From assembly GCA_963804165.1 (NCBI GenBank), contig CAWDPO010000041.1:96001-160000 (forward strand): 64,000 nt of DNA, read 5' to 3'. The notes beneath the pieces were generated by a model. It was not told where the DNA came from. It saw nothing but the letters and a program-made list of their open reading frames with translations, and searched no databases. A program made the position numbers and the translations under genes. Source of the stretch: an uncultured delta proteobacterium. Lineage in GTDB: Bacteria > Desulfobacterota > Binatia > UBA9968. Positions 29,804 to 33,735 of this stretch are shown here, in pieces. How positions within the stretch are numbered: the first letter of the stretch is position 1; every line of letters starts with the position of its first letter.

Positions 29804-29843
29804 TCCGGTCGTTGAGCGGGCAATGGCGGCAAAAGGAGGAGCA

Positions 29844-30797
29844 ATGCAGTCAGTCGGCTTAATCGGTCTCGGCAACGCGGGCCGCCCGATGGCGGAGCGA
29901 ATTCTCTCAAAGGGATATGCGCTCACTGTCTTCGATATCGACAAGGCGAAAGTCCAAGCTATCGCGCAGCGAGGGGCGCTTGCGGCAAATTCCGCGGAGT
30001 CAGCCGCGCGCGAAACGACGATCACACTCTTGCCATCTTCTGTCGAAGTGCGTCAGGCGGTTTTCGGCGAAGGCGGGGCGCTTGGCAATCTCCAGCCCGG
30101 TACGACGCTCGTCGATCTCAGCGGCACGGACCCCGACTGTGCGCGTGAACTGCAGGATCGGCTGGGTGAACGACAAATTGCTTTCATCGGCGGCACGATT
30201 CACGCCAGCGGTGCGCCGGCCGTTGTGATTCCGCAAGGACGTTTCTCGATCGTCGTCGGCGCCGAAAGAGCGAAACTTGCTTCGACCGTCGGTCTCTTGA
30301 ATGATGTGGCGGACACGGTTGTCTGTTTGCCCGAACCGTGGATGCCCAAGGCATTCAAAATCGCGATTATTTTATACGCCACCACTAACAACATCATCAC
30401 CGCGGAAATCTGCTCGTGGCTGACTGCGCAAGGCGCCGACCCGAAACTGTTCTTGCAGCTTCTTCGCACAACGGGTTCGGAAGCTTCTTCTGCTCGCCTC
30501 GAAGAATTCATGAAGCGCAACAACAACAATGGCGGCGCGCTGAGCAACAGCTACAAGGATTTTCGCCAGGCATTGAGCATCGCGGCGAAGCTTGAAATCC
30601 CAATGCCGCTAGCATCGATGGCCAATCAGATTCAAGAAATGGCGCGCGCCGCTGGTCTGAAGAGACTCAATAGCCCGGCCGCGATGGCGGAATTGTACCA
30701 GATCATTACAGGAACTGACTTGAGCCATGCGACCGTCAACACCGAGGGGCGCATTCCGGCCAGCCGCGAGCCGAGAGTCGTGTATCTCGGCGACTAG
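29844..30797 (+). CDS. NAD(P)-dependent beta-hydroxyacid dehydrogenase family (divergent)
   Basis: GLIGLGNAGRPMA Rossmann motif, KDFRQAL; lacks the usual DAPVSGG. Confidence 0.82.
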   Translation: MQSVGLIGLGNAGRPMAERILSKGYALTVFDIDKAKVQAIAQRGALAANSAESAARETTITLLPSSVEVRQAVFGEGGALGNLQPGTTLVDLSGTDPDCARELQDRLGERQIAFIGGTIHASGAPAVVIPQGRFSIVVGAERAKLASTVGLLNDVADTVVCLPEPWMPKAFKIAIILYATTNNIITAEICSWLTAQGADPKLFLQLLRTTGSEASSARLEEFMKRNNNNGGALSNSYKDFRQALSIAAKLEIPMPLASMANQIQEMARAAGLKRLNSPAAMAELYQIITGTDLSHATVNTEGRIPASREPRVVYLGD

Positions 30798-30850
30798 CTC
30801 ATCCAATCGATAATTGAACGAGCGGACTCATTTAAAGAAATCGATGACGG

Positions 30851-30934
30851 GAAAAATTTAGGCCGAGAAAAAATATTTTTCAGAAGAAAAAAATAGTCTT
30901 GACATGGCAACTGTGCGGCGTTAGGAGTTATATT
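30851..30934 (+). promoter_or_regulatory. A-tract (UP-element-like) plus TTGACA, putative promoter of the downstream ncRNA
   Basis: Several A/T tracts, then TTGACA 30899-904; the best -10 (TATATT 30929-34) is at non-canonical spacing. Confidence 0.5.
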
Positions 30935-30939
30935 AGCCT

Positions 30940-31345
30940 CGGATAGTACGGGGTCGAAAGAGCCGGTGCAGCGCGCGCCTGTCGCCAACTCTTTCAGAAT
31001 TAAAGTCGGAGGGTGTTAATGCAGGGAGAAGATAGTCCACCGGGCCAATCATGCCCGCAGTCGGCGGGCGCCAGCAGTTCGAGCAAGCTACCTGTCAGGC
31101 ATCGAGCTGTGTGAATCAAGCCCTCAAATTCTACGCCAAATGGCGTGAACCCGAAACGGGGTAAATCAGAAGGTTGGGCTTCCTCAGAGCAGACTCGTTA
31201 CCAAACTGACGGCAAGTGGAATCGAACGGAGCGCTGAGCGAGTCGTCGGTGTGCGGGCCGTAAGCCGCAAAATTAAATAAAGAATAATGACGCGATGGCG
31301 TCAATAAAACGGGCAGTCGTCCTAGGCGTGCTGCCCGTTTTGTTT
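30940..31345 (+). ncRNA. Candidate large structured ncRNA of unknown family (about 400 nt)
   Basis: More than 8 helices, several with G-U pairs on +; promoter-like region upstream; strong terminator; no downstream gene on +. Confidence 0.65.
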
Positions 31346-31348
31346 TAT
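31306..31348 (+). terminator. Intrinsic terminator, probably bidirectional
   Basis: AAAACGGGCAG/CTGCCCGTTTT followed by GTTTTATT. Confidence 0.85.
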
Positions 31349-31446
31349 TAACGGTTTACTTCCGCCGGAGCGGCTGGAACTTGCTCGGTTGCAAGGCGTG
31401 AGCGGACAGCGCCTTATTGACGCGCGTTATGGCAGAACGCCTGGAT

Positions 31447-32157
31447 TCAGCCGCGCAGCAATTTACCGTAGCCCTCGATCGGAGCTTTTGTGCCGAGGGC
31501 ATGCATCGCCCACCACAGAGACGCGGCGGTGCTTGATACCACGGGTTTTTGCGTGTCGTCTTCGAGCTCCTGCACGTAAGCGACCGAGCGCCAGCGACCC
31601 TGAATTAAAATACTCTCAACGTCAGGATGCCGGCGAAATAGCTCGCGCGCGACCTTATAAGACGCATAATCCGGCAGCTTAACCTGATCCACGGGTTTAG
31701 AAACTTCCAAGCCTTTGATCGCCAAAACTCTTACGCCGCCGTCCTCGTAGTATTTTTTTACCGCCTGGTTGATGGTTTCCTTATACGCAGTCGCGATGAC
31801 CGTGCTGCGGACGCGTAAATGCTTCAGCGCTTCGACTGTGGCACTCATCGCGGTACTGACCGGTAGCCCGACTTGCCGCGATAGCTTGGCTACAACCTCC
31901 TGCTCAGCGGCGTAACCGCGCTGGGTGCCCAACGTAATCCCGCCCATGAGAATCGCGTCGCACTCTTCGGCGGCGAAGATACCCAAGCCGGCTCCCAAAG
32001 CGTCGATCGCCTTGTTGAACTCGGCTTCCGTGTGCGCTTGAACGTTGAGCCCGGAGGCGACGATGGTAAAGCCTTTGGGCAAAATGAGATCCCAATCCGA
32101 CGGCGTTTCAAAAACCGAGGGGGATAAGTAACCGATCCGCGCTTTCCAGCCTGACAA
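31447..32157 (-). CDS. Maleate isomerase/arylmalonate decarboxylase (Asp/Glu racemase fold), lacking catalytic Cys
   Basis: WKARIGYLSPS, LEDDTQKPVVSS, IEGYGKLL. Confidence 0.82.
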   Translation of the reverse strand: MSGWKARIGYLSPSVFETPSDWDLILPKGFTIVASGLNVQAHTEAEFNKAIDALGAGLGIFAAEECDAILMGGITLGTQRGYAAEQEVVAKLSRQVGLPVSTAMSATVEALKHLRVRSTVIATAYKETINQAVKKYYEDGGVRVLAIKGLEVSKPVDQVKLPDYASYKVARELFRRHPDVESILIQGRWRSVAYVQELEDDTQKPVVSSTAASLWWAMHALGTKAPIEGYGKLLRG

Positions 32158-32583
32158 ATTATTTTCCTCCCGATAAATTAGTGATGCACAGATCTACCAC
32201 CGGTTCGTTTCACGCGTCGTCTGCCGAAGCATGAAGCCAGGAGACCTGGTAGCGGTCGCCACGAAACGAAAATGAGCCCAGATCGAAATGGAATAACATC
32301 GAACCCAGCTATTTAATCCGTACGTTCTTTGGGTCTTCGTATTATCTCAATACTCAGACTATGAAAAGTCCTGGTCCATGAACCGGCCGTTTGGGTCTGG
32401 TTCCAGATGATCGAGGCAAAGCTTGATTTCGTGCAACGCGCGGCTAAACTGACGAATTCCTGTTTAAAATAATTTCTGGAACTGCAGGAACATGCTATGG
32501 TGTGCGTCCAATACTTAGGAGGATGGAGTAATAGTTGGGGTATCTCATATTCAATCCATCACTTAGATATAGTGCATAAGTCT

Positions 32584-33735
32584 ATGAAAATTAACCATTC
32601 CTTGAGAAGCGGATCCCTCGCGATATTTCTTGTCGGCGTCATGATTGCTTCCTCGGTGCTCGCGACCGGACACGCCATTGCCGGCGATGGTCTAGAGTTC
32701 AACCGGCGCGCTACCGCGACCGCACAAATCCTGGCGGGTATTTCGCCGAATCCGCCGGACCCGGCGTTGAAGCGCCTCGTGGACACAGATGCTTTCAAAG
32801 AGCACCAGCAATGGATGACCAGTCGCTGGAATCAAGTGTCTCATCGCATCCAAACCATGGACGCGTGGCGGAGCCAAGAGATCAAACTTCTGGGAGCGCA
32901 GAAAAAGACCCTGCTTTATCCGTTCAGCGGTCCGGATTTTCTCAACGCTTATACTTTCTTTCCAGATCACGCGCGCTACGTATTTTTTAGTCTCGAACGA
33001 CCGGGAACGCTGCCGGATTTGGAGTCGGTGACGCTCGTGCAGTTCGCCAAGATGCTGCAAGACGTGCGCAGCGCGTTTCACGATATCTTCGAGCGCAATT
33101 ATTTCATCACTTCGTACATGACCAAACAGCTGACGACGCCGTGGATTCGTGGCACGGTGCCAGTGATGGCAACGATGATGGCGTTGATGAATCGGCGCAT
33201 TATCAGGATCGAGCCGCTCGATCTGTTTCCCGAGCTCACGCGCGCCTATGATGTGCCGGACACAAAACGACCGCCGGTAATGGTGCGCGCCGTGCGCGTG
33301 GAGTTCGCCAACCCGAACGCCGCGAGCACGCAGTACCTGTACTATGTCTCGCTGGATGCGACGGACAGGGCGCTTGATTACTATCCCGAATTCTTGAACT
33401 GGGTGGGGCAGTATAAGCCGGCTACGCTCCTACTCAAGTCGGCGTCCTATTTACTTCACGATAATCAATTTTCGAAAACTCGCACGATGCTCCTAGACTC
33501 GGCCGACGTGGTCGTGCAGGACGACACGGGAATCCCTTACCGCTACATCAGCCAAGAGCCCTGGCAGGTCAAATTATACGGGCGCTATCACAAACCAGTC
33601 AGACCGATGAAATATGGTTACCAAAAGGATCTCGAGGCGGCCTATATTTCTCGACCGGAGCAAGCGCCGTTGCCGTTTCCCTTCGGATATCATTGGCGCG
33701 GACAGCAGTCCGGTCTAATCGTCGCGCACCGCTAG
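32584..33735 (+). CDS. Exported hypothetical protein
   Basis: Signal peptide; motif-like blocks YPFSGPD, KSASYLLH, QDDTGIP, FPFGY. Confidence 0.75.
   Translation: MKINHSLRSGSLAIFLVGVMIASSVLATGHAIAGDGLEFNRRATATAQILAGISPNPPDPALKRLVDTDAFKEHQQWMTSRWNQVSHRIQTMDAWRSQEIKLLGAQKKTLLYPFSGPDFLNAYTFFPDHARYVFFSLERPGTLPDLESVTLVQFAKMLQDVRSAFHDIFERNYFITSYMTKQLTTPWIRGTVPVMATMMALMNRRIIRIEPLDLFPELTRAYDVPDTKRPPVMVRAVRVEFANPNAASTQYLYYVSLDATDRALDYYPEFLNWVGQYKPATLLLKSASYLLHDNQFSKTRTMLLDSADVVVQDDTGIPYRYISQEPWQVKLYGRYHKPVRPMKYGYQKDLEAAYISRPEQAPLPFPFGYHWRGQQSGLIVAHR

Follow-up and report, generated by a model that had tools for sequence, protein, structure and literature searches.

A conserved RNA gene with a short Pro-Pro reading frame in uncultured soil bacteria: a possible free-standing attenuator

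The stretch of DNA analysed here (64 kb, hereafter the window) contains a conserved RNA gene of about 410 nt, located on the + strand at approximately 30935-31346, between convergent genes, and belonging to uncultured soil bacteria. It is best explained as a free-standing RNA gene outside Rfam, the 5' part of which is probably translated. The gene is conserved among relatives, helices in its 3' half covary, its short frame carries a constant signature at a fixed spacing from an invariant hairpin, and pieces of it are present in RNA libraries. The reading preferred here, to which a probability of roughly 45% is given, is that of a free-standing, attenuator-like riboregulator, in which a ribosome pause at two proline codons would gate the fold or the activity of the downstream RNA domain. 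The first-pass annotation had described a stand-alone structured RNA, about 400 nt in length, that has a promoter-like region and a terminator to itself, and the sequence-level findings, conservation included, agree with that description.

Limits, neighbours and occurrence of the gene

The A-tract and TTGACA box that had been noticed ahead of the RNA are both present (Table 1), the box following directly on an A/T-rich run. A-rich runs occur at the same place in the homologues, and an exact TTGACA was found upstream in 66 of the 67 loci with enough flank, the remaining one having TTGACT. The hexamer located 17 nt past the -35 box starts with TA in 46/66 loci, and the start of the RNA is predicted at about 30934-30936. 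The strong terminator proposed for the other end was likewise recovered, as a long hairpin followed by a U-run at 31304-31346 of the minimum free energy (MFE) fold. A simple consensus scan for promoters and terminators called neither signal on the + strand; the promoter was missed because TAGGAG lacks the final T which the scan demands, and the terminator because its loop, as paired here, exceeds the length allowed by the scan. At the level of sequence the predicted promoter and terminator are separate from the neighbouring genes, as is demanded of dual-function small RNAs.

The position between convergent genes, 29823-30797 (+) and 31447-32157 (-), was also confirmed. The upstream gene encodes NAD_binding_2 and NAD_binding_11 domains, and the downstream one belongs to the Amdase family. 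A convergent Amdase neighbour was found also at L008, L012, L018, L054, L055, L058, L061, L063, L064 and L157; this synteny is limited to the subfamily of the window, the other subfamilies having no Amdase neighbour. The gene-context survey found no neighbouring gene family or theme shared across the loci, and gene context was dropped as a guide to function, a common neighbour not having been found. These data bear on the possibility of a cis-acting device, either a leader or attenuator controlling the co-directional gene that follows or, for the window, an antisense source into the convergent Amdase gene. Among the loci with a called downstream ORF, that gene is co-directional in 12/32, some of these genes being close (TctC in L071 and L072, 47-59 nt away; cdaA in L077, L085 and L146, about 0 nt away); several genera of the window's subfamily retain the Amdase neighbour, and GCCCG of the frame could base-pair with CGGGC on the 5' side of the terminator stem. 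However, a strong U-run terminator is conserved in 62/70 loci, the downstream gene is convergent in 20/32, so that the regulated same-strand gene which defines an attenuator is lacking, and there is no common neighbouring family. Moreover, the possible anti-terminator pairing spans about 250 nt and shows no covariation because both its sides are invariant. A device acting in cis is for us the least likely of the alternatives.

Copies of the RNA measure about 330-420 nt. Within a single family of uncultured bacteria from soil and groundwater the RNA is close to universal, and elsewhere its presence is patchy. BLASTN recovered homologues in 21/61 genomes of relatives, with a single copy in the window's own genome, and a covariance model (R1) detected the element in 70/90 genomes of the family, comprising 21/23 genera and 28/31 high-quality genomes; closed genomes (G037 and G395) are among the carriers. 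At the level of the order the covariance model found it in 72/123 genomes, with 2/5 in a sister family and 0/28 in a third one; in the class sample it occurred in 3/18 genomes of one family of another order, and in the phylum sample the sole match among 151 genomes was the window's own, the 150 others being negative.

Metatranscriptome contigs from four runs of four studies (soil and rhizosphere) contain pieces of the element between 30949 and 31314, three of which (30956-31113, 31103-31216 and 31187-31314) are identical to the window. The word depth of the contigs over the central block was 128-2884 in run X6 and 262-557 in run X9, values that are per contig and include relatives; such contigs are silent on strand, ends and true expression level. 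No contig of the four runs covered 30700-30948 or 31315-31600, and contigs cannot show ends or silent flanks; the small word shares of 16 further listed runs likewise carry no weight as evidence.

The absence of a recognisable family, asserted in the first-pass annotation, holds against the whole of Rfam 15, which gave no match at gathering score over the entire 64-kb window. At E<=10 the region 30800-31450 gave just three chance-level rows (mir-2217, greA leader and HOXA11-AS1_6, E 1.5-4.8), all far below the cut-offs, and at E<=1 no match was obtained in 17 diverse homologous loci. Since the set covers raiA, OLE, GOLLD, ROOL, HEARO, group I and II introns, 6S and SRP, the loose likeness to the raiA motif suggested in the first-pass annotation is not upheld, no Rfam model matching at E<=10 beyond the rows above. 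The stated lack of tmRNA and RNase P signatures is correct: ARAGORN found no tRNA or tmRNA in the window, and neither RF00023 (tmRNA) nor RF00010 (RNase P) matched at the element, the frame of which has a Shine-Dalgarno box and an AUG, unlike the tag frame of tmRNA, which has neither. A replacement of one of these RNAs was considered because the window's own genome (81% complete) gave no RNase P match and only tRNA-like tmRNA matches. It was excluded, canonical tmRNA (188-218 bits) and canonical RNase P RNA (295-309 bits) being found elsewhere in 5/5 near-complete relatives that carry the element. Among open-access main texts, a description of this RNA was found neither in the literature on Binatia noncoding RNA nor in that on dual-function RNAs, stalling and EF-P.

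Table 1. Features of the RNA gene and its surroundings (positions in the window).
Feature	Positions	Strand	Basis
A/T-rich run, UP-element-like	30860-30898	+	read directly; function inferred
-35 box TTGACA, perfect	30899-30904	+	sequence
-10-like hexamer TAGGAG, 17 nt past the -35 box	30922-30927	+	sequence
5' hairpin P1, GCCUCG / CGGGGU	30936-30954	+	MFE fold
5' helix P2, GAAAGAG / CUCUUUC, with inner GCA/UGU helix	30956-30995	+	fold and relatives
Shine-Dalgarno box GGAGGG, 5 nt before ATG	31008-31013	+	conserved
Mini-ORF, 31 codons and TGA, MQGEDSPPGQSCPQSAGASSSSKLPVRHRAV	31019-31114	+	conserved frame
Pro-Pro-Gly codons CCA CCG GGC, codons 7-9	31037-31045	+	conserved
Hairpin GCCCGC-N5-GCGGGC, invariant, six pairs (arms from 31053 and 31064)	31053-31069	+	homologue alignment
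Hairpin CAGTTCGA / TCGAGCTG (arms from 31075 and 31102); 3' arm = last sense codons before stop	31075-31109	+	relatives
Three-way junction, closing helix AAGCCC/GGGCUU (arms at 31118 and 31176)	31118-31181	+	covariation
Junction hairpins ACGCC/GGCGU and ACCC/GGGU	31133-31146 and 31149-31162	+	covariation
GCAG..UCGU, possible 3' partner of 31102-31110, extending the stem under the junction	31190-31199	+	relatives
GCGGGC, conserved, then A-rich linker (31262-31287)	31253-31258	+	alignment
Pre-terminator hairpin UGACGC-GAUG-GCGUCA	31288-31303	+	covariation
Intrinsic terminator, AAAACGGGCAG ... CUGCCCGUUUU and U-run	31306-31346	+	MFE fold
Amdase-family gene, convergent	31447-32157	-	Pfam Amdase, E 1.1e-33; context only

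Secondary structure and covariation

The + strand, read 5' to 3', folds with an energy of -160.3 kcal/mol (z -3.40), which was reached by 0/100 shuffled sequences; for the - strand z was -2.60, with 2/100 shuffles as good. G-U pairs are frequent in the covariation alignments (UG 13, GU 9 and GU 20 at single pairs), and on the opposite strand these would be A-C mismatches.

In the 5' part the CCC/GGG pairs of P1 are retained in close relatives, and the inner pair of P2 (alignment columns 58/68) reads AU in 12 sequences and GC in 6. P1 is not universal because it is absent from the subfamilies with short leaders, and P2 is likewise not found in all of them. The hairpin GCCCGC/GCGGGC, which the first-pass annotation had read by eye, is invariant and paired in 94.9-97.2% of the homologue cells, the lower value being that of 68 sequences, in which no covariation is seen. 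The hairpin CAGTTCGA / TCGAGCTG, from the same reading, was 86.7% paired among 18 close relatives, and its duplex in the window has an energy of -16.0 kcal/mol (z -2.2); it is not general in distant subfamilies. Two further pairings were rejected, namely CCGGGC-GCCCG as a universal hairpin, which variants with Asp, Asn or Cys after Pro-Pro disrupt, and an anti-Shine-Dalgarno role of CUUCCUC (31181-87), the pairing of which with the box fails, on inspection by eye, in L005-type sequences.

The helices of the earlier reading that form the three-way junction hold up as well, the closing helix and the two inner hairpins covarying in the homologues. Among 68 sequences one pair of the closing helix is CG in 21, GC in 17, AU in 14 and UA in 6, and one pair of a junction hairpin is UA in 30 and CG in 29; the junction strands UCAA... 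and ...AGAAGG are conserved. Over the 68-sequence alignment 90.4% of the cells are paired and 21/28 pairs change on both sides, with a covariation score of 0.363 compared to 0.136 for shuffles (0/500 of which reached 0.363) and to 0.062 or less for slid controls; the structure of the model guided the fitting of alignments A4 and A6, which are thereby biased toward it. On a structure-blind MAFFT alignment 4/5 pairs of hairpin 1 (31133-31146) covary.

The stem under the junction may be extended by the segment 31190-31199, which is about 89-91% paired in close relatives (one pair being UA in 8, CG in 2 and GC in 2) and 79.7-86.8% paired on 68 model-fitted rows; in the window itself the pairing is weak (-9.8 kcal/mol, z -0.3). 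A leader-peptide attenuator would have two alternative hairpins, one of them covered by the frame. In the window's subfamily the 3' end of the frame may pair either upstream or downstream, and significance is confined to that subfamily; over 53 sequences z < -1.64 was reached in 14 for each partner, with mean z of -0.49 and -0.87.

The other helices that had been read by eye fared differently. Among 18 sequences CAGCGC/GCGCTG was just 55.8% paired, TCCAC/GTGGA just 52.1%, GACTCGTT/AGCGAGTC 59.9% and ACTCTTT/GGAGGGT 77.2%, and the covariation of the four together was matched by shuffles in 194/500 trials. The long-range and pseudoknot helices proposed at first thus lack covariation support in the homologues and are not retained.

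Downstream of the junction, CGGG of the block at 31253-31258 is invariant in 17 close relatives and visible in distant copies. The pre-terminator hairpin is 92.5% paired, with 4/6 pairs changing on both sides, and the terminator 96.2% paired, with 11/11 pairs doing so; for the whole 3' module 95.0% of the cells are paired and 15/17 pairs change on both sides. This module lies on the same strand, 14-151 nt past the core, in 62/70 loci.

The reading frame and the proposed pause

A start codon followed by Pro-Pro at codons 5-10 was found in 68/68 copies (at codon 6 in 37 of them and at codon 7 in 20), and GGAG, GAGG or AGGA stands at most 16 nt from the scored start in 65, the scoring script having taken an upstream start in the other three rows. 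The first proline codon is CCA in 48 copies, CCG in 18 and CCC in 2, and the second CCG in 55, CCT in 11 and CCA in 2, so that CC is fixed in both and variation is confined to the third base. The following residue is G in 51 copies, D in 7, N in 4, C in 3, K in 2 and E in 1. The distance between ATG and Pro-Pro differs among subfamilies by whole codons only, and the GC hairpin starts 13 nt after the first base of the second proline codon in 64/64 sequences. The N-terminal motif can be written M-x-[DE]-[DEG]-x-[TSN]-P-P-G-x-x-x-P, and the only firmly conserved feature of the putative peptide is an acidic start, then Pro-Pro-(Gly/Asp/Asn) at codons 6-9. Constraint is limited to the first 8-9 residues.

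The length of the frame is less constant. It is 31 aa in 14/21 close rows, scores as 23-34 codons in 55/68 and ranges overall from 8 to 52 codons; two copies end right after Pro-Pro-Gly (MKEVTPPG and MNEVTPPG) with their RNA features retained, and these are also intact where the frame is altered to 42 aa (L004), 52 aa (L058), 40 aa (L061) or 37 aa (L063). The other two frames are equally open (median 27 open codons vs 25), and an open frame by itself therefore means nothing here. Selenocysteine insertion or read-through at TGA was excluded, the stop codon varying among TGA, TAA and TAG, as was a frameshift into a longer frame after Pro-Pro, no frame being consistently long (at least 40 open codons in 3, 14 and 21 of the 68 sequences for the three frames).

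Two simpler interpretations have to be weighed against these data. In the first, the locus would be a plain small-protein gene, with the peptide of about 31 residues as its product and the structured RNA as a stabilising 3' untranslated region. The start codon, the N-terminal motif and the synonymous changes of the proline codons throughout the copies, together with the Shine-Dalgarno motif and the prevalent length of 31 aa among close rows, are what such a gene would show. Nevertheless, the C-terminal half of the peptide is not conserved, frames are shortened or shifted in some copies while the RNA features persist, the codon-position entropy in close relatives (0.70 / 0.48 / 0.67) has no third-position excess, and neither Pfam nor NCBIfam has a family matching the peptide. 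The codons for Pro13 and Ala-Gly have no synonymous variation at all, which fits the constraint of an RNA hairpin and not of a peptide, and it is outside the frame that conservation and covariation are strongest. A small-protein gene is accordingly regarded as unlikely.

In the second, the RNA would be purely non-coding (protein-binding, ligand-binding or catalytic), the box, the AUG and CCN CCN being RNA motifs. The strong covariation of the junction and of the 3' hairpins, the invariant blocks (GCCCGC, GCGGGC and the junction strands), which suggest recognition and not coding, the equal openness of the other frames and the high word depth of the central block in X6 and X9, relatives included, are all in keeping with this. 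On the other hand, RNA motifs would hardly account for third-base variation alone in both CCN codons in 68/68 copies, for the retained spacing of box and AUG, or for the shifting of Pro-Pro by whole codons; and the changes among GGC, GAC, AAC and TGC in the codon after Pro-Pro break the possible GCCCG pairing yet give Gly, Asp and Asn. This interpretation seems less likely still than the preceding one. The first-pass annotation had named conservation following the codons of the 31-aa frame as the observation that would count against its structured RNA; the frame is indeed conserved like a translated one, but the strongest covariation lies downstream of it, so that the element fits neither the picture of a wholly non-coding 'ornate RNA' nor that of an ordinary small-protein mRNA.

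The preferred reading, that of a pause-gated riboregulator, starts from the nature of the codons. Pro-Pro before Gly, Asp or Asn is among the stronger stall contexts. At the level of sequence the element has the consecutive proline codons and stall-prone residue of an XPPX stall motif and, at that level only, the short frame with sensor codons of an attenuator. According to PMC5021804, ribosomes stall at PPG motifs, EF-P relieves the stall, and the RNA downstream is reshaped when stalling occurs in short leaders, mgtL among them; PPN serves as a standard stall motif in PMC11611912. Against the preferred reading stand the lack of a third-position excess in the frame, the equal openness of the other frames and the partial overlap of CCA CCG GGC with the possible GCCCG pairing, through which part of its conservation could be owed to the RNA.

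On this basis we infer translation, a pause, its coupling to the fold and an output. A strong promoter would drive the RNA, and an exposed Shine-Dalgarno box and AUG would open the mini-ORF, which would serve as a sensor and not as a product. Ribosomes would pause at Pro-Pro for a time set by EF-P and by the supply of prolyl- and glycyl-tRNA, with the GC hairpin placed at the leading edge of the ribosome held there. As long as it is held, the remaining frame would be free of ribosomes and the downstream domain could fold. The frame would usually end at the foot of the three-way junction (the stop codon is 3-22 nt before it in 51/64 sequences), and run-through ribosomes reaching that codon would repeatedly open the helices at the junction base. 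The fold of the 3' domain would in this way report the state of translation elongation, and might thereby govern how long the RNA lasts or how it acts in trans, on a protein or on a second RNA. It is tempting to speculate that the element represents a new class of riboregulator, a 'free-standing attenuator' that acts in trans and has no cis target. A start-proximal Pro-Pro pause, strengthened by the GC hairpin, would sense either EF-P activity or the supply of prolyl-tRNA and pass the signal on to a large junction domain by way of its fold, its lifetime or its binding of partners; this wider proposal is tentative and somewhat doubtful.

With this element an RNA family absent from the catalogues comes to light. 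Should the Pro-Pro mini-frame act as a sensor, it would constitute a device of the leader-peptide type with no downstream gene, the boundary between attenuators, small RNAs and small-protein genes would blur, and the RNA would be a natural reporter of EF-P-dependent pausing. The cell would then possess an RNA-level sensor of translation-elongation capacity that has no target in cis, and the design allows a direct test of the effect of EF-P at the predicted position of the ribosome.

Comparison with known systems

With the raiA motif, OLE, ROOL, GOLLD and HEARO the element shares a length of several hundred nt, heavy structuring and restriction to a lineage, and like these ornate RNAs it is apparently well represented in RNA libraries; unlike them, it is not matched by their Rfam models. 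To our knowledge, no ornate RNA of this group carries a conserved translated mini-frame.

The dual-function small RNAs SgrS/SgrT, RNAIII/delta-haemolysin and SR1/SR1P (review PMC12612679) resemble it in being free-standing transcripts with their own promoter and terminator, in which a small frame is combined with a structured regulatory part. In those RNAs the peptide is a conserved functional product, whereas in the element the first 8-9 residues alone are constrained.

The leaders mgtL and mgtP of Salmonella mgtA and mgtCBR, in which, according to PMC5021804 and PMC11611912, proline codons slow the ribosome and its position selects the RNA fold, are similar in having a short frame with proline codons near the 5' end. 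They are, however, 5' leaders of the genes they control, some of them acting via Rho, whereas the element ends at its own terminator in 62/70 loci. With the start-proximal arrest leaders ErmCL, CatA86L, TnaC and SecM the element would share a ribosome that is held within the first ~10 codons, just before a hairpin, and remodels the downstream RNA. Arrest in those leaders depends on a drug, an amino acid or a pulling force and serves to expose the ribosome-binding site of the gene that follows, whereas no such gene or second ribosome-binding site is seen on reading the sequence of the element.

A likeness in organisation is offered by rnTrpL of Sinorhizobium meliloti, an attenuator-derived small terminated RNA with a short translated leader frame which also acts in trans (PMC6614838), and the leader peptide of which, peTrpL, can have a role of its own (PMC7298713). 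The likeness consists in a leader-type frame inside a small terminated RNA. rnTrpL is much shorter than 410 nt; it lies upstream of trpE(G), is still active in cis and has Trp sensor codons, whereas the element, at about 410 nt, shares no downstream gene among its loci, has Pro-Pro in place of Trp codons and includes a large covarying junction domain. The two have no sequence or Rfam relation, and in the preferred reading the element would work like a leader-peptide attenuator detached from any downstream gene.

The RNA gene, its fold and its occurrence in RNA libraries

The element, an RNA gene of about 410 nt (30935-31346, + strand), lies between two convergent genes; the convergent setting, the TTGACA box at its head and the closing terminator described in the first-pass annotation were all borne out for 30899-31346. 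Neither a promoter nor a + strand terminator was called by a simple consensus scan of the element.

Features of the element and of the adjoining region
Feature	Position	Strand	Remark
3-hydroxyisobutyrate-dehydrogenase-like gene	29823-30797	+	
Perfect TTGACA	30899-30904	+	preceded by A/T-rich run
TAGGAG		+	17 bases beyond TTGACA
5' hairpin P1	30936-30954	+	
5' hairpin P2	30956-30995	+	
Mini-frame, 31 codons	31019-31114	+	contains Pro-Pro
Three-way junction	31118-31181	+	
Terminator-like site	31303-31288	-	consensus scan
Long hairpin and U-run	31304-31346	+	end of element
Match of 3' module model R2	31306-31343	-	
Amdase-family gene	31447-32157	-	
412-aa ORF	32497-33735	+	no Pfam family at E<=0.001

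With a site and an R2 match on the - strand as well, the terminator region (31288-31346) looks bidirectional and might terminate transcription of the convergent Amdase gene too. The + strand fold of the element reached -160.3 kcal/mol (z -3.40), 0 of 100 shuffles being as good, and the - strand gave z -2.60. G-U pairs are frequent and compatible with the + strand only, in agreement with the orientation first proposed from them.

When 18 close relatives were aligned with MAFFT, blind to structure, pairing in the closing helix of the junction and in both its hairpins came to 93-98%, and hairpin 1 showed both-side changes in 4 of 5 pairs. The core is covered by a covariance model, R1 (built from 18 sequences; its 193 positions start at the Shine-Dalgarno box and end a little beyond the junction), and the 3' module, composed of GCGGGC, an A-rich linker, a hairpin and the terminator, by a second model, R2, which places it 14-151 nt past the core on the same strand in 62 of 70 loci. 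The 68 copies aligned with R1 have 90.4% of cells paired and both-side changes in 21 of 28 pairs, and the 62 loci with a 3' module have 95.0% paired and both-side changes in 15 of 17, both alignments being fitted to their own models, which favours the modelled structure. The 68 copies had a covariation score of 0.363. Shuffles gave 0.136, none of 500 attaining 0.363, and slid partners did not exceed 0.062. Examples of covarying pairs are CG 21 / GC 17 / AU 14 / UA 6 and UA 30 / CG 29. The hairpin GCCCGC-N5-GCGGGC is invariant in these copies, with zero covariation. Four helices earlier read by eye (CAGCGC/GCGCTG, TCCAC/GTGGA, GACTCGTT/AGCGAGTC and ACTCTTT/GGAGGGT) are not conserved: they are 52-77% paired, and their covariation score was reached by shuffles in 194 of 500 trials. 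P1 and P2 are restricted to some subfamilies, the leaders elsewhere having just about 25 nt.

The run index gives 20 rows with the element from 13 studies, 13 of the 20 being recorded as RNA. Contigs from four RNA runs (four studies) carry pieces of it between 30949 and 31314, three of which match the window letter for letter (30956-31113, 31103-31216 and 31187-31314). In relatives' sequences the central block 31028-31127 has a per-contig word depth of 128-2884 in run X6 and 262-557 in run X9; the strand of a transcript, its ends and its real level of expression are not given by library contigs. One X9 contig with a relative's sequence departs from that of the window at 31301, inside the 5' arm of the terminator; the letters beyond are presumably Illumina adapter, which would mean that a cDNA fragment ended there.

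Distribution, neighbourhood and relation to known RNA families

BLASTN detected the element in 21 of 61 relatives' genomes, with one copy in its own. Within the family, R1 found it in 70 of 90 genomes (21 of 23 genera), including 28 of the 31 of high quality. At order level 72 of 123 genomes were positive; 69 of these fell among the 89 genomes of the same family, counted without the window's genome, and 2 among the 5 of a sister family, and the 28 of a third family gave none. The class sample added 3 of 18 genomes, from one family of another order, and the element was not found in the 150 other genomes searched in the phylum sample. These tallies include three unpublished genomes (G005, G076 and G035), all with a match, without which the figure for the family becomes 67 of 87; they were excluded from every alignment and model.

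A pattern scan limited to a single genome from each species gave 55 loci, in which R1 made 41 matches at E <= 0.01. The 34 above 35 bits are the real copies; their records bear depositor titles, mostly 'Candidatus Binatia' or 'Deltaproteobacteria' MAGs, that disagree with one another. The other seven (15.5-23.3 bits; titled Kitasatospora, Sphingomonas, Devosia, Rhodanobacter, Gemmatimonas, Nitriliruptoraceae and Acidimicrobiales) are taken for chance hits. Two or three R1 matches each were obtained in G009, G012, G017, G023, G029, G031, G068, G075, G077 and G083-G085, and several genomes of the same genus have a divergent type only (26-41 bits vs about 200); paralogous subfamilies therefore coexist. 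One copy (L016, G023:C648, locus 1-1320) adjoins a DDE transposase ORF (DDE_Tnp_1, DUF772), diverges past the junction and lacks the 3' module (GCGGGC, hairpin, terminator), and looks like an RNA gene truncated by insertion of an insertion sequence.

The convergent Amdase gene downstream is kept over several genera of the window's subfamily, as might be expected of a device acting in cis. Other subfamilies have other neighbours (NMO, NMT1, TctC, cdaA and others), 20 of 32 called downstream genes are convergent, and no common neighbour was found across the loci examined; this fits a stand-alone gene, and action in cis is considered very improbable.

At L077, L085 and L146, all from one genus and hence not independent support, the element is immediately upstream of the co-directional diadenylate cyclase gene cdaA (Pfam DAC, CdaA_N). 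In the copy from another order (L162, G395) an aminoacyl-tRNA editing-domain gene (397-861, + strand; Pfam tRNA_edit, YbaK/ProX type) precedes the element by about 600 nt in the same orientation, which is curious next to a putative Pro-Pro sensor and, at one locus only, may be due to chance.

The absence of a recognisable family was borne out by Rfam 15, which gave no match at the gathering score over the entire window, just three chance-level rows at E<=10 in 30800-31450, and none at E<=1 across 17 diverse homologous loci; the likeness to raiA suggested in the first-pass annotation is unsupported. ARAGORN gave no hits in the window. In the window's own assembly (G000; 81% complete, 46 contigs) RNase P RNA is absent from the matches and tmRNA is represented by tRNA-like matches only, none over the cut-off, probably through an assembly gap; five near-complete relatives carrying the element were therefore examined. 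Each of the five carries canonical tmRNA (188-218 bits) and canonical RNase P RNA (295-309 bits) at other sites in its genome, so that the element was rejected as a candidate for either, as its lack of their signatures had indicated. It is a new RNA family, of which no description was found in the literature searched, largely that outside subscription journals.

The mini-frame and its geometry

Conservation of the 31-aa frame had been named beforehand as the sign that would speak against a non-coding RNA, and it holds for the beginning of the frame, not for its C-terminal half. All 68 copies have a start codon with Pro-Pro following at codon 5-10 of the frame as scored, most often codon 6 (37 copies) or codon 7 (20). 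The scored start has a Shine-Dalgarno motif ahead of it in 65; in the remaining three an upstream start had been picked in scoring. Both Pro codons have CC fixed and vary at the third base only (first CCA 48, CCG 18, CCC 2; second CCG 55, CCT 11, CCA 2), and the following residue is G 51, D 7, N 4, C 3, K 2 or E 1. A purely non-coding RNA would agree with the covarying helices and leaves this constancy unexplained; it is regarded as quite unlikely.

A plain small-protein gene, somewhat less unlikely, would account for the length of 31 aa in 14 of 21 close rows. Among the same rows L007 has lost two whole codons (-2) and L017 has gained one (+1), and frameshifts or early stops are found in L004, L012 and L020. 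The codon-position entropy of 0.70 / 0.48 / 0.67 in close relatives, the unconserved C-terminal half and the equally open other frames were counted against coding. The peptide has no Pfam or NCBIfam family match, and two copies stop directly after Pro-Pro-Gly with the RNA features retained. Since Pro-Pro is conserved and the signs of coding are otherwise poor, we infer from the sequences that the constraint is on translation through Pro-Pro, itself presumed, and not on a protein product.

Counted from the first nucleotide of the second Pro codon, the invariant hairpin starts at +13 nt in 64 of 64 sequences, and the stop codon is 3-22 nt upstream of the junction in 51 of 64. A ribosome whose P site is occupied by the second Pro codon extends about as far as such a hairpin, and similar distances separate frameshift sites from the structures that stimulate them. 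Within the window's subfamily two pairings are open to the last sense codons (31102-31110): one with an upstream arm (31075-31082; -16.0 kcal/mol, z -2.2), the other, weaker, with a downstream arm (31190-31199). This choice of partners is not a general property, each being significant in 14 of 53 sequences.

Proposed action and precedents

The best-supported account, given a probability of a little under one half (about 0.45), is that of a free-standing, attenuator-like riboregulator, with translation, pause, coupling to the fold and output all postulated. The exposed ribosome-binding site would load ribosomes onto the mini-frame, where they would pause at Pro-Pro-(G/D/N), ahead of the GC hairpin; whether a ribosome stays or runs to the stop at the foot of the junction would decide the folding and action of the 3' domain.

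PPG is reported to stall ribosomes, with relief by EF-P, and proline-dependent pausing at mgtL to remodel the RNA (PMC5021804); PPN is a documented stall motif (PMC11611912), and stronger pausing is linked to CCA as the first codon of Pro pairs (PMC8129111). The nearest precedent is rnTrpL / peTrpL, a terminated leader RNA acting in trans (PMC6614838). The element is an unusual variant of leader-peptide sensors and dual-function RNAs.
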